64,000 nt of DNA from Pseudanabaena sp. BL-A-41 (GTDB taxonomy: Bacteria > Cyanobacteriota > Cyanobacteriia > Pseudanabaenales > Pseudanabaenaceae), in NCBI GenBank assembly GCA_050632425.1, contig CP192607.1, forward strand, positions 4,634,158 through 4,698,157. Reading direction: 5' to 3'. The notes under the pieces were generated by a model. That model was not told the origin of the DNA and made no database searches. It saw only the letters and a list, made by a program, of their open reading frames with translations. The translations under genes were made by a program, and so were the position numbers. Numbering within the stretch: position 1 is the stretch's first letter; every line of letters starts with the position of its first letter. Positions 3,777-37,144 of this stretch are shown piece by piece.

Positions 3777-3944
3777 ACTTACAGCGCTTTGCGCTCAAAT
3801 CCAAACCAAGAAAAATTTTGAAAACGTTGCTTCGCAACGTTTTCAAAATTTTTCTTGTGGTTCGTTTGATCGGAAATTGCTGTAGGGTTCTAAGGAACTG
3901 ATTTTTGTGGCGCGGCAAAGCCGCGCCACAAAAATCGGTTCCTT
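3777..3944 (+). repeat. Composite three-hairpin element, family D, copy 2
   Basis: It has the same conserved linkers as copy 1. The hairpin arms differ but stay self-complementary. The last 2 nt overlap the stop of 3943-5043. Confidence 0.7.
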
Positions 3945-5043
3945 ATGCTGTTTTTATGATTGGTAAAAACACTTTTACATGAGTTAGTTCGTAGGGAATA
4001 CTCTCAATTTCTAAGCGTCCACCATGTAGTTCAATCAGTCTTGTGGCGATCGCTAAACCTAAACCCGTACCCTGTTGAATATATAGTTTCTTCTCAAACT
4101 TCATGTAAGCGCCAAAACTCGCAATCTGTTCAGGCTCGATCCCCTGACCGCGATCGGTAACACATAGACAATATTCTGTTTGATTGCTGCTCCCCGATAC
4201 GCTGACAGTTGTGCCTTCAGGAGAAAACTTAAATCCGTTATCAATGATTTCCTTAGCGATTACATTCAAATAAGAATCTGAGATTTGAATAGTTTCATCC
4301 TTAATCTCAACAACTAAATCCGAGGCGCGATTATAATGTTCTGCGATTTTTCGAGCACAACTGGAGATCTCAATATCGACAAAAGTTGTCTTACTATTGC
4401 GGATCTGGCTCATCCACTCGGTATTGTTTTCGGTTGACTCTAACTCAGCATACAGCAGAAATTTTTTCACCATCTCATGCATATTTCGCCCCGCTTTCCG
4501 AATTCGCTTACCGATATCGGGCACTTCATGAGCTTCCATCGCATGATAATTTTTAACCAAGATATCCGCTAAACCCATCACCTCGATCGCAGGGAACAGC
4601 AACTGATGGGGTAATGACTTAGAGATATTGCCGCGTAAATTATCTAATTCTTGCTTGTAATAACTATTGATAATCTCTTGCTTTTTAAACTGAGCATTAA
4701 TCGCACCAAGTAACTCATCTCTGGTAAATGGCTTAGTCAGGTAGTCATCGGAACCAAGTTCCATGCCTTGACGAAAGTCAGTTTTATCAGACTTAGCACT
4801 GAGAAATATAAAAGGAATTGCCGTGGTTGCAGGATTATTCCGTAATGCGCTAATAACTCCATAGCCATCAATCTCTGGCATCATAATATCGCAAATGATC
4901 AAGCTAGGAATATGCTGCTGAGCCATATCTAGACCTTGGCGACCATTATTTGCCGTGATTACCATATAGCCCTCAGCTTGCAGCATTCTTGATGTATTTT
5001 GCAAAACGTTGGGATTATCTTCGATTAGGAGAATTTTTTTCAT
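3943..5043 (-). CDS. Receiver-first histidine-kinase-like protein (REC + degenerate H-box + HATPase)
   Basis: REC motifs IEDNP...CDIMMPEIDG...TKPF. H-box-like SLPHQLLFP. ATPase motifs DNGFKF, DRGQGI, GTGLGLAIA. Confidence 0.8.
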   Translation of the reverse strand: MKKILLIEDNPNVLQNTSRMLQAEGYMVITANNGRQGLDMAQQHIPSLIICDIMMPEIDGYGVISALRNNPATTAIPFIFLSAKSDKTDFRQGMELGSDDYLTKPFTRDELLGAINAQFKKQEIINSYYKQELDNLRGNISKSLPHQLLFPAIEVMGLADILVKNYHAMEAHEVPDIGKRIRKAGRNMHEMVKKFLLYAELESTENNTEWMSQIRNSKTTFVDIEISSCARKIAEHYNRASDLVVEIKDETIQISDSYLNVIAKEIIDNGFKFSPEGTTVSVSGSSNQTEYCLCVTDRGQGIEPEQIASFGAYMKFEKKLYIQQGTGLGLAIATRLIELHGGRLEIESIPYELTHVKVFLPIIKTA

Positions 5044-5180
5044 GCTAGCCTTGCAGTATCCTTAAAAACATTATACCGATAGAGATCGTTACTCAAAATT
5101 AGACATACAGCATCTTGCATAAATAGTAGATCTAGAGAAATTTTTGACAGGCTTGCTTTGTAGCTATGTCAAAAATTTCT

Positions 5181-6458
5181 CTAGGTTGTTAGATGATTAT
5201 CAATTGGTAAGGTAACTCTAAATTCTGTTCCTATATTTAATTGACTCTTGACAGATATCAAACCATTGTGAATATCTACACAGTTTTTCACAATTGATAA
5301 ACCTAAGCCCGTACCAGGTAATATACCAACATTTTTACCTCGATGAAATGCGCTAAATAAATGGATTAAGTCTTCTTCAGGAATACCGATCCCGTGATCA
5401 CTGATGATGAAGATTGCCTTCTCCTGATCAATAATCATTTGAAAATCAATATCTTTATTTTCAGGGGAATACTTAATTGCATTGGTGATTAGATTGGAGA
5501 GGATTTGACGTAAGAGTTTCTCATCCATCTGCACTGTAAATTGAGGAATATCCTGTTGTAGATGAGGATTATCAATTGATATATCATTCACTGAATGATG
5601 GAATGATGAATGGAGGTTATAGTTTTTACCAAATGTTCTTTGGATTTGGCGTAGTAATTGCTTGCAAAATTTTAAAAGATCAAATTCAGTTATATTTAGC
5701 TTTGCCTTGTTGGCATTAGTCCGACTGAGGAATAATACATCTTCCATTAATTCGGTCATATGCTTCACTTCCGATTGGATTTGATGCAATTGTTCAGTTT
5801 TTTCTTCTTTTGTCCATTCATAGTGTTCTAGTAGCTCGGCGGCACTCTGAATCGTAGTCAGGGGAGTGCGGAACTCATGGGAGACAACTGAGATAAAGTT
5901 GGTTTTCATTTCACTGAGTTCTCGCTCTTGTTTTAGCGATCGCGCCAATACTGAAGCCGATAATTGTAACTGTTCATTTTGTTCTTGCAATTTCTTTTGG
6001 AGAGAACATAATCGCAGATGGGTTTCAATTCTGGCTAGGACTTCGATTAATTGAAATGGCTTACTAATATAGTCCACACCTCCTACAGAAAATGCTTCTA
6101 CCTTTTCCGATGGTTCTTCAATGGAACTAATGAAAATGATTGGGATTCCTTGGGTTGTAGGATTAGCTTTGAGGATTTTACAAACTTCGTAACCATCAAT
6201 ATCAGGCATCCGAATATCAAGCAAAATTATGTCAGGTAAGAGTTGATTTGCTTTTTCTAAGGCTTCTTGACCATTTGTTGCTTGTTCAACCACATAACCT
6301 TGTCTGATGAGCATTAGGGATAACAGCTGAATATTATAAAGGGTGTCATCAACAATGAGTATTGAAGAAGTATTTATTGCTTTTTCCTCTTCCCCCTTTT
6401 GTATTTGTTGTGATTCCTGATTAAAATCTTGATTGAGATCTAGATTATTCATAGCCAA
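5181..6458 (-). CDS. Receiver-first histidine kinase (REC-HisKA-HATPase)
   Basis: REC (VDDTLYN...LDIRMPDIDG...SKPF), coiled coil, H-box SHEFRTPL, N-box NAIKYSP, G-boxes DHGIGI and GTGLGLSIV. Confidence 0.85.
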   Translation of the reverse strand: MAMNNLDLNQDFNQESQQIQKGEEEKAINTSSILIVDDTLYNIQLLSLMLIRQGYVVEQATNGQEALEKANQLLPDIILLDIRMPDIDGYEVCKILKANPTTQGIPIIFISSIEEPSEKVEAFSVGGVDYISKPFQLIEVLARIETHLRLCSLQKKLQEQNEQLQLSASVLARSLKQERELSEMKTNFISVVSHEFRTPLTTIQSAAELLEHYEWTKEEKTEQLHQIQSEVKHMTELMEDVLFLSRTNANKAKLNITEFDLLKFCKQLLRQIQRTFGKNYNLHSSFHHSVNDISIDNPHLQQDIPQFTVQMDEKLLRQILSNLITNAIKYSPENKDIDFQMIIDQEKAIFIISDHGIGIPEEDLIHLFSAFHRGKNVGILPGTGLGLSIVKNCVDIHNGLISVKSQLNIGTEFRVTLPIDNHLTT

Positions 6459-6486
6459 AGTTTTTGGATGTTTCTAAAATAATATA

Positions 6487-6545
6487 GCAATCCTAAATAG
6501 TTTGAGAGAGTATGTCCCGAAGGGACATACTCTCTCAAACTATTT
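6487..6545. repeat. Hairpin repeat family E
   Basis: gcaatcctaaatagtttgagagagtatgtcccgaagggacatactctctcaaactattt. Confidence 0.5.
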
Positions 6546-6566
6546 CATATCAAATTTGGTAAGTCT

Positions 6567-7292
6567 ATGCAGTTTTCGGTAATTCTTCCATGTCTCAATG
6601 AAATTCGGCATGGTTATCTAGAACCTATTCTCAGTAATTTAGTTTCACAAAATGGGGAAAAAGAAATTATTGCCGTTGTCAGTACTAGTGATGATGGAAC
6701 TGATCGAGTCTTAGAGGAATATGCGTCGCGGTTTGCCGAAATCCAAGTCCTGCGATCGCTAGCTCGAAATCGTGCTCAGAGGCTCAATGAGGGAATTGCA
6801 ATCAGTCGGGGTGAGGTTATTTTATTACATCATCCTGCCACACTATTACCAAAGGGCATTGCCTTACAGCTAATTGAGGAGGTGTTAGGTTCAGGTTATC
6901 AATGGGGAGCATTTCAGCATAGTTTCGATGTTTCCCACTGGCTACTGCGCTTTACCTCTTGGTATTCCGATAATGTGCGGGTTAAACAAAAAGGAATTGT
7001 CTATTTTGATCACTGTCCATTTGCCGATCGCCAATTTTTAGCGTCAGTTGGTAATGTCCCCGATCTTGATATTTTTGAAGATACGGTATTGAGCGATCGC
7101 CTTCGTCGATTGTCTCAACCAGTTATAGCCAAAGGCAAAGTGACGACCTCAGCGCGTAGATTTCAGCAAAGAGGCATTTATCAGCACGCTATGCTCAATC
7201 AATTGCTGAAAATCTGTTATCACTTCAACATCGATCCCCAATGGCTCAATCGGTTGTATGAACAAAAATCTAGTATTAACGTCAAGTATTAA
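6567..7292 (+). CDS. Family 2 glycosyltransferase-like protein
   Basis: The N-terminal FSVILPCLNE and the size resemble small GT2 enzymes. Confidence 0.6.
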   Translation: MQFSVILPCLNEIRHGYLEPILSNLVSQNGEKEIIAVVSTSDDGTDRVLEEYASRFAEIQVLRSLARNRAQRLNEGIAISRGEVILLHHPATLLPKGIALQLIEEVLGSGYQWGAFQHSFDVSHWLLRFTSWYSDNVRVKQKGIVYFDHCPFADRQFLASVGNVPDLDIFEDTVLSDRLRRLSQPVIAKGKVTTSARRFQQRGIYQHAMLNQLLKICYHFNIDPQWLNRLYEQKSSINVKY

Positions 7293-21643: not shown

Positions 21644-23647
21644 CTAGCGAGGTTTACCCACGGAATAGTTAATGGCATAACTCCAACTGAGCAACCGCAG
21701 CCATAGACGAGGATTAGTAGGTTCTAGCCATGCTTGACAACTGCGGATTAGCGGAGGCATCCATCCGCCCAAGATCGCATTAGCAAAGGAATTACGGGTA
21801 AAGGCTCCATAGCTAGATAGCCATTTCAGTAAGTCCTGTATCCCAGCCATTTCCAAAATCCAAAGCACTAATTTCGGATTTTTAAAGGCAGCAATAAGGG
21901 CAAGGCGGTTAAACATTAACCAATTGAGACGATCTTTGATAAAGCGATCGCTAACGGGTTGCGGCTCATCGGCAAGAAGTCCAAAGAAAGTATTTAGCAT
22001 CGAGTTCACTCGTTCGGGGGGCAAGTGCATTCCCGTAGGAACCATCATTCCCTTAGAAAATAGCCATGTGACCGCAATATTACTTTGATAGGCATTAATC
22101 TGGCTCAGATCATCGGCTCTGAGCAAATCATGTTTGAGAGCCGTATCAAGCAAAGTCGCCAAACGGGGCAAATTGCGAACGAGGGAACCAAAGCCTGTAA
22201 ATACCAGAGGAGATTGCAGAGAAGCAGCATCACCGATCGCTAAAATCCGATCAAAAGCACATTTTTTAGAATCCTCATTGAGGCTGTAATGTCCCGTGAT
22301 ATAGCCAAAGGTCGCCTTCTTCCAAGTCAGCTTCTCCATATCACAACGGCGATATTCAGGCAAAATCGTGAAGAAGTCCTCATACATTTCCAGTAATGAC
22401 CCCGGATTTTCAGGATGGACTTGGTGATAATGGAACAGATAAATCGTTAATTCATCTTTTTCTGCGGGAAAGAGTTCCCAAATTAATTGCCGTCCTCGCG
22501 AAATATCGCCATGACTGAAGAGAACATCTCCATACTGAGAATCCCAAACGTGCTTATCAAAACCTTCTAACACAGCGCCCACAGTTGGACAGACGCTATC
22601 AAAGGCTTGACCTGCATTAATTTGTTGCGCGATCGCTGAAGCCGATCCCATCGCATCAATCACCAAGCGCGAATTGAGAATTACCTCGACATCGGTTTCT
22701 AGATTCTTAGCGAAAATAGTTGCGCCATTATCGTTAATTACTACTTTCTGGAATTCGGTGCGATCGCAAATCACTGCACCATATTGATGTAATTTCTTAC
22801 TACAGATTTCCAATAAACGATTAGTATCGATCGCAATATTCAGCACCGTAGGCGTATGTAGCACCTTCGCCTTGAGATGGGGAGGATTATTGCTATCAAA
22901 AAACTTATTAAAGCCATCCACATATTCCGCCGTAATCATCGCTTCAAATTCTTCTTTGGTGAAGAGTCCAAAGTCGATCAGATTCTGAAATTCGGCGCGG
23001 GAAATATTCCATTCCCGATTCATCCGCCCAAAGGGAATGCGTTCCACCAAGCAAACGCGATAGCCTAACTTTGCCATCATCGCCGCATGGATTGCCCCCA
23101 ACGCTCCACCCAGATAAACGATGTCATAGATCACTTCTGGTTTCGCAGAATTAGCTTGTGAATCCTCAAAAATTACTTGCTTGGGAGTTTCAGGATTTTT
23201 CACACTTTCCCGCCAACGCTTTTCCCACCAGTAGACGCGATTGAGATCATATTCGCCATTGGGAATGCGTTGAAAGAATTTCACCGTAAGCGGATACTCT
23301 TTAGCTAAGGCTTCAAAAATGGATTGATTCGGAGCGATCGCAGGTGGTTGTTTAAATTCGTATGGAAAGGCAAGTCGCACCGCTTTAGTAAAATGCTCAA
23401 GAAATTCCTTTTCACCATCCATGACCTCATCCGACCAGCGAAATATTTTGAGGTAAGTCGTGCGCTGCAATGTCCAGATAAATACTGATAATTGCGCGAT
23501 CGCACCTGAACGATTTTGGCGATCGAGGATAAAGCCATGCTTAGCAACGGATTTTTTCCCAAAGGGAGGTTGGTACTCAGACTGGAGCCATGTTTTCACG
23601 GCTGCAACCTGAGGTGTAGGGATCTCGATGTAAAGTAACTGCTGCAT
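21644..23647 (-). CDS. FAD-dependent oxidoreductase; possibly a CruA-type lycopene cyclase (tentative)
   Basis: Rossmann-type dinucleotide fold DIVYLGGALGAIHAAMMAKLGYRVCLVE, preceded by an N-terminal extension of roughly 170 aa, and a GD motif (ILAIGDAAS). The size (667 aa) and layout match my recollection of cyanobacterial CruA. Not verified. Confidence 0.55.
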   Translation of the reverse strand: MQQLLYIEIPTPQVAAVKTWLQSEYQPPFGKKSVAKHGFILDRQNRSGAIAQLSVFIWTLQRTTYLKIFRWSDEVMDGEKEFLEHFTKAVRLAFPYEFKQPPAIAPNQSIFEALAKEYPLTVKFFQRIPNGEYDLNRVYWWEKRWRESVKNPETPKQVIFEDSQANSAKPEVIYDIVYLGGALGAIHAAMMAKLGYRVCLVERIPFGRMNREWNISRAEFQNLIDFGLFTKEEFEAMITAEYVDGFNKFFDSNNPPHLKAKVLHTPTVLNIAIDTNRLLEICSKKLHQYGAVICDRTEFQKVVINDNGATIFAKNLETDVEVILNSRLVIDAMGSASAIAQQINAGQAFDSVCPTVGAVLEGFDKHVWDSQYGDVLFSHGDISRGRQLIWELFPAEKDELTIYLFHYHQVHPENPGSLLEMYEDFFTILPEYRRCDMEKLTWKKATFGYITGHYSLNEDSKKCAFDRILAIGDAASLQSPLVFTGFGSLVRNLPRLATLLDTALKHDLLRADDLSQINAYQSNIAVTWLFSKGMMVPTGMHLPPERVNSMLNTFFGLLADEPQPVSDRFIKDRLNWLMFNRLALIAAFKNPKLVLWILEMAGIQDLLKWLSSYGAFTRNSFANAILGGWMPPLIRSCQAWLEPTNPRLWLRLLSWSYAINYSVGKPR

Positions 23648-23699
23648 GGCTAAATCAATATCTTCAGTGTTCTCATTTTGGCATATATCGTGATTTGGA

Positions 23700-24380
23700 T
23701 CAGACTCGTAGGCTTTCTAGCTGCGTAATCCATTGATGAAAATGTGGACATTTTTCTCTGATTTTTGCTAATCCAATCTTTTGAACTACTTGAGGCGCTA
23801 GGCTAGTTTTTAGTTTTTTGTATTTTGGAATGACTTTTTCAAGTCTTTTAGAAGGAGCAGTAGTTATATCTTGGTTAATTAATTCTGGGGAGGAATACCT
23901 TCTACATTCTACTAATAGACGATCAATGCCTTTCTTATATTGATCATTGTCAGGAAAGTCTTTATACAACTCTTCCAGATCAGTAAATATTAAAGCTTCA
24001 AATTCATGTAATTGAATGTATGGAATAAAACGACTATCATCAATATCACTTGCAAAAGAATCTTCTAAAGATTTAACCTTAAGATAAGGATCTAATAATT
24101 TGCTTGCCTGATCAAAGTTTGGAAAGCAATTTGGCAATTTGTACAGATCGAACATCGTAGTAAGTATTACTGGTTGACTATTTTTCTCTTTCCATAAACG
24201 ATTAATCTCATTTTTTATCTTTGCATAATTCGCTGAACCACCGCCTATGTTTTGAGATTTATCAGTTGTTACTAAACGATGTTTAGGATAAATCCCTTTG
24301 GAATTTAAATGTGGTTTTAAAATCTCTTTTACAAACTTTTCCTCTGTTGTACCTTCCACAAGAATATTTAGAATCAACAT
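23700..24380 (-). CDS. DUF4276-like protein (Toprim-like small partner of the upstream ATPase)
   Basis: The N-terminal ILVEGTTEEKF, plus FIPYIQLHEFEALIF and TAPSKRLE, match the DUF4276 consensus as I remember it. It starts 3 nt after the ATPase stop. AT-rich. Confidence 0.65.
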   Translation of the reverse strand: MLILNILVEGTTEEKFVKEILKPHLNSKGIYPKHRLVTTDKSQNIGGGSANYAKIKNEINRLWKEKNSQPVILTTMFDLYKLPNCFPNFDQASKLLDPYLKVKSLEDSFASDIDDSRFIPYIQLHEFEALIFTDLEELYKDFPDNDQYKKGIDRLLVECRRYSSPELINQDITTAPSKRLEKVIPKYKKLKTSLAPQVVQKIGLAKIREKCPHFHQWITQLESLRV

Positions 24381-24383
24381 TAG

Positions 24384-25577
24384 TTATGGTCTCCCACCAA
24401 TTACATTCTTATTCCATAACTCAGACAATGAATATTCTTCTAGCCAATCTTCTAAATCTGCTTGAATCAATCTTTTAAAGGAAGACGCACGATTGTTTCT
24501 TTCAACAACAATGATTTCTTCGGGGTCAAAACAATCAACTAATGATGGTGATTGAGTTGCTAAAATTACTTGGCAACGATTAGAAACACCATTAATTAGA
24601 CTGCCGATGATATCAATAGCATAGGGATGTAATCCTAGTTCTGGCTCATCTAAAATCAAAACATCGGGCAAGCTATCAGGAGGTTGTAGTAAAAGCGTTA
24701 CTAAAGCCATTGCTCTTAATGTTCCATCCGATGCTTGATGTGGGCTAAATATCAAATCAGTTCCTATTTCCCGCCATTGCAACAAAATCGTATTATTAAT
24801 AGGCTCTAATACGAAGTCTGCAAAGAATGGGGCGATTTGTCTAATAGTTTCTATTATCCTTTGATAATAACGAGGTTGATAATCTCTGATTTTTAGTAGA
24901 AATGCTGCTAAGTTACCTGCATCTTCTTGTAAATGGTGGTGGTCATAAATATTACATCTCTGCTTAAAGCGTGCAGTTTGTGAAGTGTTGTGAAATTGAT
25001 AACTAACAAAACCTTGCATTAATAAGAATATGTTTCTAGCTACATGATTCCCTGAAGTTGCTAATTCAATTGCTTTAGACTCTCTATGACCAGAAAGTCT
25101 CAATCTTTCTCTAACTAAGTCTGAATTGATCATTCTAAGATTTAGAGAACTATCATTTAGCAATTGTGTATTGTTATATTCTTGTGTAGCTTTTAAATTT
25201 TTCAAATCCACATTTTCCGAGAAAGCACTTGACAAATCATCAAATTTTTCTTGAGAGAATATAAATGTATCTGATGCAGCATAATCTAAGTCAAACGAAT
25301 AACTATATTGACCTGAAGTAGACTCAAAATGTAGATTGGTTTGTATTGTTTTTGTCAATGCCGCTCCGTCAAACAGGAAAGAATTTGCTCCTCCTGATTG
25401 CCCGACGAAAAGCTGTAGTTGTCCGGGCGATCGCATCATCCAACTTAATAGCTTAAAAAAAGAAATAAAATTAGATTTACCTGAACCATTCGCGCCGATT
25501 AAAACGTTGATGGGAGATAAATCTAATTCTAGTTCTTTAATTGATTTAAAGCCTTTAATGCTGATGTGTTTAAGCAT
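24384..25577 (-). CDS. ABC-type (AAA_21/AAA_15-like) ATPase, soluble
   Basis: IKGFKSI...INVLIGANGSGKSN (Walker A), ASDGTLR (signature-like), VLILDEPELGLHP (Walker B) and ILATQSP. No TM or substrate-binding domain. Confidence 0.8.
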   Translation of the reverse strand: MLKHISIKGFKSIKELELDLSPINVLIGANGSGKSNFISFFKLLSWMMRSPGQLQLFVGQSGGANSFLFDGAALTKTIQTNLHFESTSGQYSYSFDLDYAASDTFIFSQEKFDDLSSAFSENVDLKNLKATQEYNNTQLLNDSSLNLRMINSDLVRERLRLSGHRESKAIELATSGNHVARNIFLLMQGFVSYQFHNTSQTARFKQRCNIYDHHHLQEDAGNLAAFLLKIRDYQPRYYQRIIETIRQIAPFFADFVLEPINNTILLQWREIGTDLIFSPHQASDGTLRAMALVTLLLQPPDSLPDVLILDEPELGLHPYAIDIIGSLINGVSNRCQVILATQSPSLVDCFDPEEIIVVERNNRASSFKRLIQADLEDWLEEYSLSELWNKNVIGGRP

Positions 25578-25598
25578 AGCGATCGCACAATTTCACAC

Positions 25599-26918
25599 TT
25601 AGGGTTTGACAATCAAAATACCGTAAGCATCAGGATTGAGATATTTGCGAACGGCGGATTGGATATCCTCTTTGGTGATGGATTTGATTAAATCGGGATA
25701 ATTTAAGGCAGGCTCTAGCGAACCGACAATGCGATCGTAATAGCCGTAGATACCTGCACGTTCCTTGGGAGACTCATTGCCGAAGATAAAGCGATTACTG
25801 ACTTGAGTGCGAATCTTCGCTAGTTCCTCATCGGTGACAGGAACTTCATGCAGTTGGCGAATATGCTCACGAATCGCTTCTTCGACGATCGCTACATCCT
25901 CCACATTTAATTTGGCAAATACTTGGAAATTACCCTGCCAACGCATCGCCGAATTACTGACGGAAATGCGATCGACGATGCGCCGATTTTCGCGCAAGTC
26001 CTGCACCATCCGCGAAGTACGTCCACTACCGAGAATATTTGCCAGAATACTTAGAGGATAGGTTTCTGATAGCTCGGTCAAGCCAGAAACGCGCCATGTC
26101 ATGCTCAATCGGGCTTGCTTAAGGCTGGTATCGGTTACTTCACGCCGTACAATTTCTGTAAAGGGCTTTTCGGGAGTGAAAGTCTTAGGCTGAGGTTTAT
26201 CAGTGATCGCATCTCCTTCAAAGTAATTAGCGATCACACCGATCATCTCGCTGACGGGTAAATTGCCAACCACAGCGATCGTCATGTTTTGCGGCGCATA
26301 CCATTGACGATGAAACGAGCGCATCTGCTCAGAGGTGACATTCTCAATCACCTCGACGGGGCCCAACACCGCGCGGCGATAGGGCAACTGCTCGTATACC
26401 AATTCGGAAATGTGGCGATAAATGCGGCGATCGGGATTGTCTTCACTGCGGCGAATTTCCTCTAGTACCACATGACGTTCACGCTGAAACTCTTCGTCAG
26501 GAATGCTAGCCTTTAGCACGATATCTAGTTGTAAAGGCGCAAGTTTTGCGAAATCTTTAGGCGCAACATTGATATAAAAATGCGTGTAATCCTGACTGGT
26601 TGCCGCATTGGTATTACCACCGTGTGACTCGATCGCCTGTTCAAATTCTCCCAAAGCAAGGCGATCGCTACCCTTGAAAACCATATGTTCAAGGAAATGT
26701 GCCATCCCGTTAATGTCATCGCTCTCCACGGCAGAGCCAACATCAACCCAAATACTCAGGTTGACTGCATCCACAGGAATCTGTTCGGCAATAATCTTAA
26801 TTCCATTGGGCAGAACATATTGAGTAGGCGCAGATAGTTGCGCTCTAGTAGCTAGATCATTGAGTGCATGATCGGTCACAGCTACATCTAACCGACGCGG
26901 AACGACGATCGCTGGCAT
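25599..26918 (-). CDS. M16-family (pitrilysin/insulinase-like) zinc peptidase
   Basis: Inverted zinc motif HFLEHMVFKG and a downstream E-rich region. The size is typical. Confidence 0.85.
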   Translation of the reverse strand: MPAIVVPRRLDVAVTDHALNDLATRAQLSAPTQYVLPNGIKIIAEQIPVDAVNLSIWVDVGSAVESDDINGMAHFLEHMVFKGSDRLALGEFEQAIESHGGNTNAATSQDYTHFYINVAPKDFAKLAPLQLDIVLKASIPDEEFQRERHVVLEEIRRSEDNPDRRIYRHISELVYEQLPYRRAVLGPVEVIENVTSEQMRSFHRQWYAPQNMTIAVVGNLPVSEMIGVIANYFEGDAITDKPQPKTFTPEKPFTEIVRREVTDTSLKQARLSMTWRVSGLTELSETYPLSILANILGSGRTSRMVQDLRENRRIVDRISVSNSAMRWQGNFQVFAKLNVEDVAIVEEAIREHIRQLHEVPVTDEELAKIRTQVSNRFIFGNESPKERAGIYGYYDRIVGSLEPALNYPDLIKSITKEDIQSAVRKYLNPDAYGILIVKP

Positions 26919-28187: not shown

Positions 28188-28360
28188 ATCCCTACATCCT
28201 CACCAATAAGGTGGACATATTGTAGCGACATAAAAGCAGTTTTTTCTAGAAGTTTTCTGACTTTTTATGACATAACTCACATGGGTGAGTAGCGCGAAGT
28301 GCTACTCATCCATGTAATAAGGCTTTGGTATAATTTAGCCTAAGCATTTTGAGGAAATCT

Positions 28361-28999
28361 ATGATTACACTCACACAGCCAAGCTCTGATTCAGAAATAT
28401 ACCAAGAGAAGAATCTAGAGCTAAATTTCGACCAATTTTTGGCGCAATGTCCTGAAGATAGTCGCTATGAATTAGTGGATGGCAAAATGCTAAAAATACC
28501 AGTAACAAGACTTCATTACGATGTTGCTGGCTTAGTCATGCACTCAATGAGGGACGAGATCGAGCGACTAAATTTAAACTACGTGATTAATGACGTAGCA
28601 GCAGTTTTAACCACAAATAAGAAAGGTAAAGAACAGGGCAGACATCCAGATGTCAGCGTAATTAATCGCGATGTATGGCGTAGCGATCGCCTTGATCATC
28701 GGGGTATCCGCGAACCAATTCAGCTTGCGGTTGAGGTGGTGTCAACTAATTGGGAAGATGACTATATTGACAAGCTTGATGAATACGAGCGTTTAGGCAT
28801 CCCTGAATATTGGATTGTGGATTATTTAGCGATCGGTTCGCGTAACTATTTGGGAGAACCAAAACTTCCTTCTGTGCTGATATTTACCTTAGATACAGAA
28901 GGGAAATATCAAATGACCAGATTTCAAAATAGCGATCGCCTAATTTCGGCAACATTTCCAGAATTAAATCTCACCGTCGAGCAAATTATGGCGGCTTAA
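28361..28999 (+). CDS. Uma2-family (DUF820) putative endonuclease
   Basis: YELVDGK, PDVSV, ...AVEVVS...D...K...Y...GI.EYWIVD is the Uma2 PD-(D/E)XK-like pattern. ATG 28361 is preceded by GAGGA. Confidence 0.8.
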   Translation: MITLTQPSSDSEIYQEKNLELNFDQFLAQCPEDSRYELVDGKMLKIPVTRLHYDVAGLVMHSMRDEIERLNLNYVINDVAAVLTTNKKGKEQGRHPDVSVINRDVWRSDRLDHRGIREPIQLAVEVVSTNWEDDYIDKLDEYERLGIPEYWIVDYLAIGSRNYLGEPKLPSVLIFTLDTEGKYQMTRFQNSDRLISATFPELNLTVEQIMAA

Positions 29000-29002
29000 A
29001 TC

Positions 29003-29037
29003 TAATGAGTGGCGGCGCTTTGCGCCGCTACTCATTA
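29003..29037. terminator. Bidirectional stem-loop between the convergent Uma2 and methyltransferase genes
   Basis: taatgagtggcggcgc-ttt-gcgccgctactcatta. It overlaps the stop at 29035. Confidence 0.6.
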
Positions 29038-30234
29038 AGTTACGCTCAAAACTAAGCCCTTAAGATAAGCACCTTCAGGATGAAAAATACTTGTGGGATG
29101 ATCGGCGGGATGATTGAGATGATCCAAAATACGAATAGTCCGACCTGACTCGATCGCCGCTGCCGTGACTGCACCTGTGAAATTCTCCACATTCACTACC
29201 TGCGAGCAGGAAAAAGTAAATAGCAATCCACCACTTTTTAGTTTTGACATCGCCTGTAAATTCAAGCGCTTGTATGCCTGCATCGCTGAATGCCTTGCGG
29301 ATAGACTCTTGGCAAAAGCAGGCGGATCAAGCACGATCACCTCATAATCAGAGTCGCATTGCTTTAGAAAATCAAAGACATCCCCTGTAAAGGATTGATG
29401 AATCGCTTGGCGATCGCGATCAAAATTTGCGGCAATATTCCGATCTGTCCATTCCATCGCCTTGGCAGAACTATCGATCGAATGTACTTCCTTTGCGCCC
29501 GCCGCCACTGCATAAACCGAGAAACCGCCTGAATAGCAGAAAGTATTTAAAACCTTTTTACCAGTGGCATACTTACCAAACATCCGCCGATTTTCTCTTT
29601 GATCTAAGAAAAAGCCTGTTTTCTGACCTTTTTCCCAATCGACAATAAAGCGATGTCCATATTCCAAAACTTCAGCACTATCAGCAGATTTTTCGCCAAT
29701 CAATAAACCATCCTGAGACTGGGTTTGCGATTTACGCGAAAGCGTCGCCGAGCTTTTGTCATAAACTGCCTGCAAGCGATCGCCATATATATCCTTCAAG
29801 ATTTCTGCAATATCTTGACGATAGCGATAGGTTCCTAACGAGTGGCACTGCAAAACCGCCGTATCACTATAAACATCAATAATTAATCCTGCTAAGCCAT
29901 CCCCTTCCGAATTGATTAACCGATAGCAATTAGTTTCTGGATTATCAATTAAACCTAATTGCTTTCTCAAACTAAATGCTTGCTTCAGGCGATCGCGCAA
30001 TAAACTTTGCATCGACTCCACAGGCTGAAACGATAGCACCTTAATCGCAATGCTACCCATGCCCCACAAGCCGATCGCTAAAAATCTGCCATCCTCGCTA
30101 TAGGCTTCGACCAAATCACCATCATGGACTTCACCTTGGAGTTTAGCGATCGCACCTGAAAATATCCAAGGATGAAAACGCTGAACCGCATCGACTTTTT
30201 TACGATGAATAATCGCACGGGGCAACGATGTCAT
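29035..30234 (-). CDS. Class I SAM-dependent rRNA methyltransferase (RlmI/PUA-domain type)
   Basis: N-terminal PUA-like HPWIFSGAI, QKTGFFLDQREN, SAM motif VLNTFCYSGGFS and DPPAF. Confidence 0.8.
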   Translation of the reverse strand: MTSLPRAIIHRKKVDAVQRFHPWIFSGAIAKLQGEVHDGDLVEAYSEDGRFLAIGLWGMGSIAIKVLSFQPVESMQSLLRDRLKQAFSLRKQLGLIDNPETNCYRLINSEGDGLAGLIIDVYSDTAVLQCHSLGTYRYRQDIAEILKDIYGDRLQAVYDKSSATLSRKSQTQSQDGLLIGEKSADSAEVLEYGHRFIVDWEKGQKTGFFLDQRENRRMFGKYATGKKVLNTFCYSGGFSVYAVAAGAKEVHSIDSSAKAMEWTDRNIAANFDRDRQAIHQSFTGDVFDFLKQCDSDYEVIVLDPPAFAKSLSARHSAMQAYKRLNLQAMSKLKSGGLLFTFSCSQVVNVENFTGAVTAAAIESGRTIRILDHLNHPADHPTSIFHPEGAYLKGLVLSVT

Positions 30235-34135: not shown

Positions 34136-35593
34136 ATGGAATATCTATTTTTTGGTTTAGCGATCGCTTTAGTCATTGGCTTTGAGTTTGTGAATGGGTT
34201 TCATGACACGGCTAATGCTGTGGCTACTGTTATTTATACAAATACGCTAAAGCCAACCTATGCAGTTGTTCTATCGGGAATTTGTAATTTGCTGGGAGTA
34301 CTCACTTCAAGCGGGACAGTTGCCTTTGCGATTATTGCCCTGTTGCCTGTAGATCTAGTGGTGAATAGTTCGACATCGCAAAGCTTAGTAATGGCGATCG
34401 CTTTACTCCTATCGGCAATTATATGGAATTTAGGAACTTGGTATTTAGGATTGCCTGTATCCAGTACCCATACCTTGATTGGCTCAATTACTGGAATTGG
34501 GATTGCTAATTCTGTAATAAATTCTTTCTCTTCGACAAATAGGTATTGGTGGGATGGTATTAATTGGCTGAAGATGCAGGAAATCTTGATTTCGCTGGTG
34601 ATTTCGCCATTGCTGGGATTTTGTGGCGCAGCAATTCTATTTCTAATTGCTAAATATTTAATCCGCCAAGAGGAACTTTATACTGCACCAGAAGAGAATG
34701 TTCCTTCTCTATGTATTCGTGCCATATTAGTTTTGACCTGTTCGGGAGTGAGTTTTGCCCACGGCTCTAATGATGGACAAAAAGGCATGGGACTAATGAT
34801 GCTAATTTTGGTAGCGATTTTACCTAGCTTTTTTTCTTTAAATTTGCATACAAGTCCTCAAGCGATCGCCCAATTAGTCGCCTCATCAAATTCCGCAATT
34901 CCCATCTTATCTTCGCAATTTATTGTCAATACTAATCCAGAGCCCTCTTTTACAAATAGTCGCGATGAGCTTAGTCAATTTCTCAAACCACAGGGTCAGG
35001 TAAATGAAAATATTTGGCGATCGCTGGTTGCTGAGAGTCAAATCATTGCTGAGAAGTTATCAATTAATAACAATTTGTTGGACATTGCCGAAAGCGATCG
35101 TCGCCAAGTTAGAGATGATATTTATCTTGTCGCCAGTGCTATTAGCAAACTAGAAAAACAACAACTATTGGCTAATTTTGAGCATCCAGAAATAATCACT
35201 AACTATCGTAATCAATTGGATCATCTCACCAAATTTATTCCCTATTGGATCAAAATCACAATTGCTCTGGCTCTCGGTTTAGGAACAATGATTGGCTGGA
35301 AGCGAGTAGTCGTTACCGTGGGCGAGAAAATTGGCAAAGAGCATCTGAATTATGCCCAAGGAGCATCCGCAGAGCTAATCACGATGACGACAATTAGTGC
35401 AGCCGATTATTTCGGATTGCCTGTGAGTACTACGCATATACTTTCCTCAGGTATTGCTGGCTCGATGGTTGCCAACCGTTCTGGTGTGCAAATGGATACT
35501 TTAAAAAATCTCTTATTAGCTTGGTTATTGACTTTACCAAGTTGTATTTTGTTGGGATTCAGCACATATTCTCTTGGATTATTACTTATATAG
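34136..35593 (+). CDS. PiT-family inorganic phosphate transporter
   Basis: N-terminal GFHDTANAVAT and GSNDGQKGMG are PiT/PHO4 signatures, repeated at the C-terminus (VSTTHILSSGIAG). Confidence 0.85.
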   Translation: MEYLFFGLAIALVIGFEFVNGFHDTANAVATVIYTNTLKPTYAVVLSGICNLLGVLTSSGTVAFAIIALLPVDLVVNSSTSQSLVMAIALLLSAIIWNLGTWYLGLPVSSTHTLIGSITGIGIANSVINSFSSTNRYWWDGINWLKMQEILISLVISPLLGFCGAAILFLIAKYLIRQEELYTAPEENVPSLCIRAILVLTCSGVSFAHGSNDGQKGMGLMMLILVAILPSFFSLNLHTSPQAIAQLVASSNSAIPILSSQFIVNTNPEPSFTNSRDELSQFLKPQGQVNENIWRSLVAESQIIAEKLSINNNLLDIAESDRRQVRDDIYLVASAISKLEKQQLLANFEHPEIITNYRNQLDHLTKFIPYWIKITIALALGLGTMIGWKRVVVTVGEKIGKEHLNYAQGASAELITMTTISAADYFGLPVSTTHILSSGIAGSMVANRSGVQMDTLKNLLLAWLLTLPSCILLGFSTYSLGLLLI

Positions 35594-35815
35594 TTGCCAG
35601 AATCCGAAGCGAAATTACTATTTATATCAGTAGCGATCGCAAGCAAGTTCTCTATCACAGGTAAATTTTTGTTCAATTATTTTTGATCTATCATTTTATC
35701 ATCTTTATAGGTTTCTAATCTGTCTGGATAGCTTATGTAATTACATTGTGTGATTTATATATTTTATGTTAATCTGATTTTCTTGAATACTAATAGACCC
35801 TGATTAAACAAAATT

Positions 35816-36943
35816 GTGACTTTATCTGTAGATCAAATAACGGATCTCCTCAATGGCTTAAAAAGCTTACCGCCTTTACGAAAGCAAGAACAGACATTTA
35901 TGGAGATTGCGGGATATCCACACTTCGAGAATGTTTGTAGCAATATACTTCAGTTTTATCTTCAACCATCTAACGAACATGGATTTGGTTCACTTTTGTT
36001 AGATTCGCTGTTTACGCTCATCAATGAAAAGGTAGTAATTAATGGTCAAAATATTGATGTGCGACGTGAAGAATCTACCTCTGATGGTAAACGTATTGAT
36101 CTAATAATCGAATCAGACGATTTTCTTTTGGGGATAGAAAACAAGATTTTTGCTGATGCTTATAATCGGTTCGATAAGTATGCAGAACATCTTAATAAGT
36201 ACTTGCGGAAAGATCGCCAAGTTTATAAGGTATTATTATCGGTTTTCCCTATAGATACATCAAAGGTTAAATTATATGGATTTAAGCCTATTACTTATCA
36301 ATTACTATTTGAGAAAGTGATCGCGAATATTGGCTCTTATTTTCTGACTGGTCGTGAGCCACACACAATATTTTTGCGTGACTTTATCCAAACTATACAA
36401 AATTTACAAGAGGCAACTTCTATGGATGAACAACGATTACTATACTTTGCTGATAACCATCAAAGTATTTCAACACTATTTGCTGAAGTGATTGAGATGC
36501 AAAAGGATATGAAAAAGAAAGTAAAGGAATTAAATGAAGTTGTTCTTTCCGATCCAGACTTTTCCGATATAGATAAACTCCCTTATAAGATCATCAAATC
36601 TGGATCTTGGTTTCCTTCACCTTCAACTCGTTTGGTAGCTGGATATTGGTACAGATTTCACATAAGTGATTCCTTGTCAATACAATTAGATGTAAGGCTA
36701 ACTCCCAAAGGTTGGTATTTACAATTCTCTAATCATCCGGAAAGGGAAAACCACAAAGAAGTCGAAGATTGGGTTAATGCTCGCAATATAAAGTTTGAAC
36801 TCAGCAAAAGTAATGCACTTATATATAAGGGTGAAAAAAATAGTTTGCCATATAATACGACTCCTGAAGAGTCAGGGAAATGGGCGCTTGATATGTTGGA
36901 AAGGCTTGATATGTTGAAAAGACTGACAGACTCTTTAGACTGA
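35816..36943 (+). CDS. PD-(D/E)XK nuclease-superfamily protein (PDDEXK_4-like), orphan
   Basis: The core GKRIDLIIESDDFLLGIENKIFA (D...E.K) is preceded by FMEIAGYPHFENVCSNILQFYL, as in that family. AT-rich and without HIP1. GTG start, uncertain. Confidence 0.6.
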   Translation: MTLSVDQITDLLNGLKSLPPLRKQEQTFMEIAGYPHFENVCSNILQFYLQPSNEHGFGSLLLDSLFTLINEKVVINGQNIDVRREESTSDGKRIDLIIESDDFLLGIENKIFADAYNRFDKYAEHLNKYLRKDRQVYKVLLSVFPIDTSKVKLYGFKPITYQLLFEKVIANIGSYFLTGREPHTIFLRDFIQTIQNLQEATSMDEQRLLYFADNHQSISTLFAEVIEMQKDMKKKVKELNEVVLSDPDFSDIDKLPYKIIKSGSWFPSPSTRLVAGYWYRFHISDSLSIQLDVRLTPKGWYLQFSNHPERENHKEVEDWVNARNIKFELSKSNALIYKGEKNSLPYNTTPEESGKWALDMLERLDMLKRLTDSLD

Positions 36944-37144
36944 TTAATTAACATCTTCATTTCATTGCATTTTTAGATCGGCAATGCTTTGCCCCTAACC
37001 TTAAGTCAATACTGGCAAATATTACTGTGCTACTTACGCTCGAAACTGCTAAATTTAATTAATAATTAACATAAGGATGTAGTCAAAACTACACTTTTCT
37101 GCTGTTTTTTAGATCTTTGTAAAGCTAAGCCCCCCGTAAATCAT

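Follow-up and report, generated by a model that had tools for sequence, protein, structure and literature searches.

What is the role of the small AT-rich two-gene cassette that lies between two housekeeping genes in the genome of Pseudanabaena sp. BL-A-41? The cassette occupies the interval 23648–25598 of a 64-kb stretch of contig CP192607.1 (here called the window, to which the coordinates refer unless another locus is named), and it consists of two intact open reading frames (ORFs) on the minus strand, which are separated by 3 nt. The first encodes a soluble ABC-type ATPase and the second a smaller protein with a DUF4276 domain. An earlier note, made from the sequence alone, interpreted this pair as a horizontally acquired defence module in which an ATPase and a Toprim-fold nuclease follow the same logic as in OLD, PARIS and AbiL systems, and considered the pairing of the ATPase with DUF4276 as uncharacterised. 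The data showed that the cassette belongs to PADLOC HEC-01, a candidate anti-phage system that had been catalogued before, and that its chromosomal slot is empty or filled with other defence systems in close relatives. We consider it probable that the cassette is a standalone HEC-01 module, which would work as a split OLD-type defence with a Toprim nuclease under the control of the ATPase.

Both proteins matched HEC-01 profiles across nearly their full length. The ATPase matched the HEC-01A profile PDLC04175 with an E-value of 3.4e-131 (435.6 bits), and eleven HEC-01A profiles recognized it, while its partner matched the HEC-01B profile PDLC04188 with an E-value of 5.2e-75 over residues 1–224 of 226. 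The matches of the ATPase to the profiles of AriA, AbiLi, mad3, Old and GajA fell behind the HEC-01A match by at least ~100 orders of magnitude, and they covered the generic ABC core only. In Pfam, the ATPase was assigned to AAA_21 (E = 4.9e-35) and AAA_15 (E = 7e-16), as expected from the ABC ATPase assignment in the earlier note, and the partner was assigned to DUF4276 (PF14103; E = 3.5e-53, 181.2 bits against a gathering cut-off of 30.2 bits, model positions 1–192 of 192), a family that the note had also named. HEC-01 was described as Hma-embedded candidate 01, an ABC ATPase with a TOPRIM-like protein located inside Hma (helicase-methylase-ATPase) systems, and the structure predictions indicated that the ATPase was of the ABC and not the AAA+ type, and that HEC-01B had an OLD-like metal site (Payne et al., bioRxiv 10.1101/2024.01.29.577857). 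These features agree with those of the window proteins, and the gene order, with the ABC ATPase followed by the TOPRIM-like protein, is the same. The window copy is different in that it is not embedded in an Hma system but stands alone between two housekeeping genes; the Hma system, however, is the context of the discovery, and the PADLOC model does not require it. It is also cyanobacterial, and its ATPase contains an additional variable insert of ~30–50 aa. Hence, the pairing can largely no longer be called uncharacterised, because HEC-01 has already been named and tested twice in E. coli.

To describe the chromosomal slot of the cassette, the M16 peptidase protein encoded on one side was compared with public genomes, the 667-aa protein encoded on the other side was compared with metagenomes, and all four genes were mapped onto the matches. 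The two flanking proteins are 87–97% identical in syntenic relatives. The data showed that the slot between the M16 and 667-aa genes is a strain-variable defence hotspot, which is present in five states among close Pseudanabaena relatives. HEC-01, with junctions of near-equal lengths, is found in Pseudanabaena UWO311 (L081), in Pseudanabaena metagenome-assembled genomes (L082–85), in GL79 (L001), and in L089. The slot is empty in the closest relative, L086, in which the flanks have 96–97% protein identity and a synonymous divergence (dS) of 0.24–0.48. In L087 a HEC-01 pair with 63% identity is followed by a pair of 95-aa and 133-aa PIN proteins (L087 2036–2724), which represents a toxin–antitoxin (TA) addition to the cassette. 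An AbiL system is present in L088, L090 and L092, where it consists of a 466–470-aa AAA_21 ATPase and a 206-aa RloB protein (PADLOC AbiLi 8e-93, AbiLii 7e-25), and a 1110-aa Type IIG restriction-modification (RM) enzyme (2e-141) is present in L091. An unrelated convergent gene comes after the M16 gene in L002. The comparison of this locus among relatives, which had been proposed as a check of the defence interpretation, thus revealed empty or otherwise occupied slots, and this observation supports a defence role of the cassette, but not a new kind of system.

The sequences of the junctions were compared among the slot alleles. Behind the M16 gene, the empty allele has an intergenic region of 66 bp with a strong, terminator-like hairpin (AAAAAAGAGAGCtttGCTCTCTTTTTT; L086 5934–6001), which is absent from all HEC-01 alleles. 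The AbiL alleles carry their own, different long hairpin and a promoter-like TATAAT region, unlike HEC-01. The left junction TAAGTnTGAAATTnTGCGATCGC is common to the HEC-01 alleles (L081, L082, L001) and to the Type IIG RM allele L091, while the right junction (GCGATCGC)CTATATGCCAAAATGAGAACACTGAAGATATTGATTTAGCC-ATG is found in the HEC-01, HEC-01 with TA, AbiL, and Type IIG RM alleles; both of these shared sequences are missing from the empty allele. The HIP1 octamer GCGATCGC is located at the left boundary in the HEC-01 and Type IIG RM alleles and at the right boundary in the HEC-01 with TA, AbiL and RM alleles (L087, L088, L090, L091), while in the plain HEC-01 alleles the right-hand copy has degenerated to CACGAT-ATATGCC. 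Hence, the shared junction sequences place HIP1 palindromes at the boundaries of the cargo. A precise deletion is an unlikely origin of the empty allele, because this allele has a hairpin instead of the shared junction sequences.

No promoter-like or terminator-like sites were predicted in either junction of the cassette, and the regional counts of such sites were at or below shuffle expectation. Because the hairpin that follows the M16 gene in the empty allele is also replaced by the cassette, the cassette probably owes its transcription to read-through from the M16 gene, and the M16, ATPase, DUF4276 and 667-aa genes may form one transcript.

Two other observations were made around the slot. 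The ORF of the 667-aa gene extends in some alleles upstream of the conserved ATG (MRSPICQNENTEDIDLAMQQ...), across the shared junction and HIP1 (L088 2615–4672, L090 1192–3249, L086 5974–8004), so that automatic start calls of this gene differ between strains. A Uma2-family endonuclease gene (28349–28999, plus strand), which lies between a PUA-methyltransferase and a TPR gene, is also present in L081 (5491–6123) but missing from L082–L085, which are syntenic in other respects. This gene is a second case of presence/absence polymorphism, at a distance of two genes from the hotspot.

The cassette differs in composition from its surroundings. Its GC content is 33.8%, while the whole window has 42.5% and the flanking genes have 44.9% and 47.8%, which bears out the low G+C reported before, and the interval is the lowest-GC stretch of 1951 nt in the window (z = -3.2). 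The GC content of third codon positions (GC3) is 0.22–0.24 in the cassette genes versus 0.43–0.47 in the flanks. This low GC3 is seen in every lineage (0.16–0.24), which indicates that amelioration has not occurred. The dS values between the window and L081 and L082 are 0.58–0.93 for the cassette and 0.77–1.24 for the flanks, and the fact that the cassette dS is of the order of the flank dS in several pairs suggests that the insertion is old and not recent. A simple recent acquisition is ruled out, because the cassette is found in synteny in lineages whose flanks have diverged to a dS of about 0.8–1.5. Hence, the proposal of horizontal acquisition holds for a mobile module of deviant composition, but recent acquisition is too simple an explanation for a cassette that is kept in the same slot, with its low GC, over this divergence. 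The HIP1 octamers were also considered as a sign of foreign origin; the interval contains two of these, one at 25427 and the other at 25579 (inside the 21-nt left junction), and not one as counted before. The number expected is 3.6, and the depletion is not significant (P = 0.12 for one or fewer by script, and ~0.3 for two or fewer by Poisson arithmetic with the same expectation).

The HEC-01 ORFs are intact in all slot alleles. The ratio of nonsynonymous to synonymous divergence (dN/dS) is 0.13–0.35 for the ATPase and 0.19–0.60 for the DUF4276 protein, compared to 0.03–0.11 for the flanks, and the dN of the cassette is ~2–15 times that of the M16 and oxidoreductase flanks. These data showed that the selection on the cassette is purifying but relaxed, or partly diversifying. 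The cassettes are also mosaic, because between the cassettes of L082 (8903–10681) and L001 (9345–11110) the ATPases are 94% identical (dS of 0.20), while the DUF4276 proteins beside them share only 50% identity, and the flank dS is 1.1–1.4. This difference indicates that the genes of the sensor and the effector have been exchanged independently. The breakpoints fall where the ATPase gene ends and, in the DUF4276 gene, ~100 nt short of its end, and the most conserved segments are the cassette ends and junctions (0.91–0.99). No integrase or transposase gene was found near the cassette among the window ORFs, and apart from chance and HIP1 matches, neither target-site duplications nor terminal inverted repeats were detected around it. 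The cassette appears to have spread and diversified by homologous recombination, without a mobility gene of its own.

The DUF4276 protein was compared with known Toprim proteins using an AlphaFold2 model (89.5 in pLDDT, the predicted local distance difference test, and 0.86 in pTM, the predicted TM-score), which is a confident one. The model contains an N-terminal alpha/beta core, with strands at residues 2–8, 30–36, 71–78 and 119–123, and a helical C-terminal half. Its sole significant fold match in the PDB was the C-terminal catalytic region (Toprim with helical part) of Xanthomonas OLD (6njv; E = 4.1e-4, probability 1.0), which is consistent with the Toprim fold that structure prediction had been proposed to reveal. 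The DUF4276 profile did not match any PDB sequence (best E = 0.33), and there is no solved DUF4276 structure. In the BFVD viral fold library no match was found at E <= 0.001, and an RloB-like phage protein appeared only at E = 0.07. A Toprim domain is recognized by an alpha/beta fold with a conserved glutamate after the first strand, and the model has this fold, with the invariant E9 at the corresponding place. In alignments of 42–64 homologs, from which the conservation of DUF4276 residues was judged, P176-S177, K191 and C211-x-H213 are also invariant, besides the residues listed in Table 1. The two-metal site of Bp OLD consists of E400/E404, D455-x-D457, T506-x-E508 and K562 (PMC6755086). 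The residues E9-x3-E13, D78, E126-x-E128 and K191 of the DUF4276 protein parallel E400/E404, D455, T506-x-E508 and K562 as a linear pattern only, and the spacing of E9 and E13 is the same as that of E400 and E404 (PMC6755086). From its place in this order, the H125-E126-F-E128 motif would be positionally analogous to T506-x-E508, and E126-x-E128 may supply metal ligands that are missing from the reduced DxD motif.

The AlphaFold2 model of the ATPase (pLDDT of 83.4) was most similar in Foldseek searches to Rad50, the SMC head, PtuA (Septu, retron I-A), and Ts OLD (6p74), with E-values from ~1e-12 to 1e-13. The best match of its sequence in the PDB was also OLD 6p74, over the first 43 residues. 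Among the features of an ABC ATPase, Walker A, the signature, and Walker B with the catalytic glutamate (LILDE311) are present, while the histidine of the H-loop is not. The motifs GANGSGKS, ASDGTLR, VLILDEPELGLHP and ATQSP of the ATPase were found where the earlier note had placed them, and ILVEGTTEE, HEFEALIF and APSKR, which it had reported for the partner, are all present as well. Conservation in the ATPase was determined from an alignment of 59 HEC-01A homologs, in which A340, T341, Q342 and S343 are invariant, and from a separate alignment of 9 sequences, in which T286 of the signature motif is invariant. In the AbiLi-type ATPase from the slot of L088, the corresponding sequence is TTHD, with a histidine at the position aligned to Gln342. 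By analogy to H-loop mutants of ABC ATPases, the invariant Gln342 suggests that the ATPase hydrolyses ATP slowly, and that ATP serves as a switch.

The most variable part of the ATPase is the insert, which is missing from relatives of 364–370 aa and differs between alleles. Residues 122–160 within this region are disordered in the model (pLDDT below 50). The gap fraction in the alignment of the insert is 0.37–0.72, the column entropy reaches 2.4 bits, and the nucleotide identity between syntenic alleles drops to 0.2–0.6. These features make the insert a candidate specificity or sensor region, and the hypervariable insert together with the raised dN are arms-race-like signatures.

The combination of an ABC ATPase with a Toprim catalytic region is the same as in OLD nucleases (Class 1, P2 Old and Ts OLD; Class 2, GajA), and OLD structures are the best PDB matches of both cassette proteins, by sequence and fold for the ATPase (6p74) and by fold for the DUF4276 protein (6njv). 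In contrast to OLD, where both domains belong to one polypeptide, in the cassette they are encoded by separate ORFs, the DxD motif is reduced to D-x-Y, and the H-loop contains glutamine. Neither cassette protein matched the Pfam model Toprim_OLD, and the matches to the PADLOC profiles Old (1.5e-20) and GajA (2e-14) were limited to parts of the ATPase. No gene for a UvrD-like helicase, as GajB of Gabija, was found within 5 kb of the cassette. The logic and the gene order are also the same as in AbiL, where the AbiLi ATPase is paired with AbiLii/RloB, and which occupies the identical chromosomal slot in L088, L090 and L092. The region from the signature to the H-loop is common to the ATPases of both systems (hhalign 81%), but the AbiLi ATPase consists of 466–470 aa and has the H-loop histidine, while the ATPase of the cassette consists of 397 aa and has glutamine. 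The 226-aa protein did not match RloB/AbiLii in Pfam or PADLOC, and the DUF4276 profile showed no detectable similarity to the true RloB from the same slot (probability 0.3%). The placement of both DUF4276 and RloB in the Toprim superfamily comes from the analysis of Menshen, where DUF4276 corresponds to Mad4 (PMC12065111), and it is this literature on which their common Toprim ancestry rests. Hence, the proposed logic of an ABC ATPase with a Toprim-fold protein, shared with OLD, PARIS and AbiL, is supported by these comparisons, although the cassette belongs neither to any of these three nor to Gabija or MADS proper.

To place the cassette in a broader context, the distribution of its family was analyzed. 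The DUF4276 family comprises ~4,650 clusters at 50% identity, of which 3,317 are found at E <= 1e-10, and the best 150 representatives are all standalone proteins of about 180–266 aa. In every inspected context an AAA_21 ATPase of ~365–400 aa is encoded immediately upstream of DUF4276, with an overlap or a gap of up to 6 nt, and the pair typically forms a solo islet amid housekeeping genes. In the distant homolog of L174 (8889–10690), for example, it lies between two Proton_antipo_M (NADH dehydrogenase subunit) genes, with which it is co-directional, as in the window, and from which it is separated by gaps of 24 bp and 42 bp. The pair adjoins ruvA and ruvC in L173, a Fic gene in L171, and glycosyltransferase genes in L169. 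Among the inspected contexts TA genes are often found near the pair, while classical defence islands are not; in Planktothrix L166 (7750–8881) Gp49 and HTH_37 genes lie beside HEC-01, while L167 lacks them. Small TA-like pairs of this kind, which adjoin HEC-01 in some strains (L087 and L166) but not in their close relatives, suggest that one and the same insertion point gathers several small modules. DUF4276 homologs were found on 13 of the 72,556 plasmids, and in none of the 50,697 phage genomes. HEC-01 was also reported among the more abundant candidate defence types of metagenomes (bioRxiv 10.1101/2024.09.26.614923).

If the cassette is a split OLD-type defence, the ATPase, with its head similar to Rad50, SMC, PtuA and OLD, would serve as a nucleotide-dependent sensor and regulator that physically interacts with the DUF4276 protein, and the latter would be a Toprim-fold nuclease effector, which probably uses two metal ions. 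In the uninfected cell the ATPase would keep the nuclease inactive or away from its substrate. A cue from the phage, perhaps one of its proteins, a DNA end or structure, or a shift in the nucleotide pool, would license the cutting of nucleic acid, and the cutting would either stop phage replication directly or lead to abortive infection. DNA is modestly favoured over tRNA as the target, because the best matches of both proteins are the DNA-acting OLD, Rad50, SMC and PtuA.

The experimental data on other HEC-01 representatives are divided. In a study of cold-seep metagenomes, one of them was reported to protect E. coli B from one or more of the phages T4, T5 and T7 (bioRxiv 10.1101/2024.09.26.614923). 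In favour of a defence role, the homologous Mad3/Mad4 pair is also required for the defence by MADS, and the loss of mad3 rescues the lethal deletion of mad5. Several observations weigh against a split nuclease defence. The representative of Payne et al. did not protect E. coli against the BASEL and classic phages (bioRxiv 10.1101/2024.01.29.577857), and the positive result was obtained using over-expression induced with isopropyl β-D-1-thiogalactopyranoside (IPTG), with no fold-reduction given in the text (bioRxiv 10.1101/2024.09.26.614923). The fold match of the DUF4276 protein to 6njv is weak by template modelling (TM) score (0.37–0.40). The DxD motif of Toprim is reduced in this protein to a single aspartate (D-L-Y), while DxD was reported to be conserved in the DUF4276 domains of Menshen (PMC12065111). 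Finally, the immediate neighbours of the cassette, here and in most homolog contexts, are housekeeping genes, and there is no classical defence island.

It could also be considered that the cassette causes abortive infection in the way of PARIS (AriA/AriB; OLD Class 4), with an oligomer of the ATPase sequestering the DUF4276 protein until a phage protein, for example an anti-restriction protein, triggers its ATP-dependent release, which would result in cleavage of host tRNA and translation arrest. PARIS is likewise split into two adjacent genes, one for an ABC ATPase and one for a Toprim effector, and DUF4276 partners are found inside the tree of AAA_15/21 defence ATPases in the PARIS paper. 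The glutamine in the H-loop would, by analogy to H-loop mutants of ABC ATPases, fit a slowly hydrolysing switch better than a motor, and the hypervariable insert could be a surface for recognition of the trigger. However, the effector of PARIS is a DUF4435 protein, and the 226-aa protein matched DUF4276 and HEC-01B but not AriB or DUF4435 in Pfam and PADLOC. The AriA profile (PDLC02980) matched residues 23–348 of the ATPase over model positions 1–304 of 304 with an E-value of 2.4e-32, ~100 orders weaker than HEC-01A, and because this span is equal to that of the Pfam AAA_21 match, it reflects generic domain similarity. No PARIS structures were present among the top 50 fold matches of the ATPase model, which included Rad50, SMC, PtuA and OLD, and the sole significant fold match of the DUF4276 protein is the DNA nuclease OLD. 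The absence of the family from the phage genomes is also different from PARIS, which is borne by phages and satellites. Hence, a PARIS-like mechanism is unlikely, even though it is the most plausible of the alternatives to the split OLD-type defence.

The remaining explanations are less likely, because the empty allele is clean, the slot also hosts AbiL or RM systems in other strains, mad genes are missing, and the composition is foreign. One of them is that the cassette is a selfish addiction module, similar to TA systems, in which DUF4276 would be the toxin and the ATPase its neutraliser, and which would persist because its loss is costly and not because of any net defence. TA genes are often adjacent to the pair, as the PIN pair in L087, Gp49/HTH_37 in L166, DUF433/DUF5615, and HigB/HicB in L173, and a solo islet in housekeeping arrays without mobility genes could be expected of such a module, as could the negative result of the heterologous defence test. 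A module of this type can also be toxic, because in the related MADS system the lethal deletion of mad5 is rescued by the deletion of mad2 or of mad3, the gene of the ATPase. On the other hand, the clean absence of the cassette from the closest relative indicates that cells tolerate its loss or replacement, bona fide defence systems (AbiL and Type IIG RM) alternate with it in the slot, one test of phage protection was positive, and the hypervariable insert and elevated dN better fit antagonistic co-evolution. Addiction and defence are compatible and not mutually exclusive, but addiction without net defence seems improbable.

An even less probable explanation is that the pair is an orphan fragment of a methylation-linked system, similar to MADS or embedded in Hma, which would be inactive alone or work with a methyltransferase encoded elsewhere. 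Mad3 and Mad4 of MADS are a homologous pair of an ATPase and a DUF4276 protein (PADLOC mad3 9e-28, NCBIfam MAD3 1e-28), deletion of mad3 or mad4 lowers MADS defence, HEC-01 was discovered inside Hma systems, and a gene for an S-adenosylmethionine (SAM)-dependent methyltransferase is located 3.4 kb away (29035–30234). However, MADS is a methylation-associated system of eight genes, and no other mad or Hma genes were found within ~5 kb of the cassette; in place of the mandatory MAD6-8, the neighbouring ORFs are unrelated housekeeping genes. The score of the ATPase with the MAD3 equivalog model NF047739, 100.7 bits, is far under its cut-off of 420 bits. The nearby methyltransferase is a conserved gene of PUA/RlmI type, which relatives also have next to their empty slot region. 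In all contexts inspected the pair stands alone, and it is under purifying selection.

Finally, a housekeeping pair for DNA repair or recombination, analogous to RecF (ABC ATPase) and RecR (Toprim), is very unlikely, because the same domain logic, the matches of SMC_N and RecF/RecN models to the first ~40–50 residues of the ATPase, and the one homolog adjoining ruvA and ruvC are outweighed by the presence/absence of the cassette among close relatives and its replacement by AbiL or RM, its foreign composition in all lineages, its dN far above that of core genes, and a RecF score of 31.8 bits against a cut-off of 172 bits.

The split OLD-type defence therefore remains the favoured explanation, and the arrangement of the locus raises the question of how such cassettes are exchanged. 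A speculative and rather doubtful proposal is that HEC-01 modules are plug-in cassettes without promoters or mobility genes, which sit between co-directional housekeeping genes and borrow host transcription, while their alleles are exchanged by homologous recombination at a population-level hotspot, with sensor and effector recombining independently and with HIP1 marking the boundaries. If the HIP1-bracketed junctions were indeed recombination joints, this would represent a cyanobacteria-specific mechanism for the shuffling of defence cassettes. Although the system itself was already catalogued, the five-state hotspot and the mosaic, fast-evolving HEC-01 alleles are new here, and they provide one more defined core-genome defence hotspot in bloom-forming freshwater cyanobacteria. 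Because the same position is empty or carries divergent HEC-01 alleles, AbiL, or Type IIG RM in near-isogenic Pseudanabaena backgrounds, the locus is a good natural system for studies of HEC-01 against native cyanophages. It is also suited for mapping of specificity to the ATPase insert, and for testing the interchangeability of ATPase and effector alleles.

The positions of the genes, motifs and junctions are collected in Table 1.

Table 1. Features of the HEC-01 cassette and its flanks in the 64-kb window
Feature	Position	Strand	Remarks
ORF of the HEC-01A-type soluble ABC ATPase	24384..25577	-	397 aa; Rad50/SMC-head-like
Walker A GANGSGKS, residues 28–35	25473..25496	-	G28, N30, G31, G33, K34 and S35 invariant in 59 homologs; A29 nearly invariant
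Hypervariable, partly low-complexity insert, residues ~110–165	25083..25250	-	defined by alignment, entropy, identity and pLDDT
ABC signature-like ASDGTLR, residues 282–288	24714..24734	-	S283, D284, G285, L287 and R288 invariant in 59 homologs
Walker B and D-loop VLILDEPELGLHP, residues 306–318	24624..24662	-	D310 and E311 invariant
H-loop position ATQSP, residues 340–344	24546..24560	-	Gln342 in place of the ABC switch histidine
ORF of HEC-01B (DUF4276)	23700..24380	-	226 aa; Toprim-fold putative metal-dependent nuclease effector
EGTTE, end of strand 1	24342..24356	-	E9 and E13 invariant; putative Toprim glutamate and i+4 glutamate
D78, end of strand 3	24147..24149	-	invariant; position of the first Asp of Toprim DxD, reads D-L-Y
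H125-E126-F-E128, just after strand 4	23997..24008	-	E126 and E128 invariant; H125 nearly invariant
Upstream core gene, M16 peptidase	25599..26918	-	Pfam Peptidase_M16 and Peptidase_M16_C; left hotspot border
Downstream core gene, 667-aa FAD-dependent oxidoreductase-like protein	21644..23647	-	right hotspot border
Left junction, between M16 stop and ATPase start	25578..25598	.	HIP1 GCGATCGC at 25579–25586; no terminator, too short for a promoter
Right junction, between DUF4276 stop and start of the 667-aa gene	23648..23699	.	proximal part common to all occupied alleles
Segment missing in the empty allele	23675..25597	.	~1.92 kb; ~35-bp hairpin-bearing segment instead in L086; boundaries ± ~10 nt

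The ORF map agreed with the gene positions, the 3-nt spacing, and the flanking gaps given before, which are 21 nt between the ATPase start and the M16 stop (25599), and 52 nt between the DUF4276 stop and the start of the 667-aa gene (23647). The genes neighbouring the cassette in the window encode a histidine kinase, a response regulator, the oxidoreductase, the M16 peptidase, a TPR protein, Uma2, and the PUA-methyltransferase. The name CruA-like, which had been used for the 667-aa gene, is not supported by any specific model, because this gene matched only generic FAD-binding and geranylgeranyl-reductase-superfamily models, below the family cut-offs.

Two other patches of low GC content were noted in the window. 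The second-lowest (35151–37101, GC 0.351) contains a solo gene of the PD-(D/E)XK nuclease family (35816–36943, plus strand; 375 aa; Pfam PDDEXK_4, 1.8e-15), which lies between the genes of a PHO4-type phosphate transporter and a ribulose-phosphate 3-epimerase, and may be another small acquired islet. The third patch (4751–6701, 0.36) contains two response-regulator and histidine-kinase genes (3943–5043 and 5181–6458), both on the minus strand.

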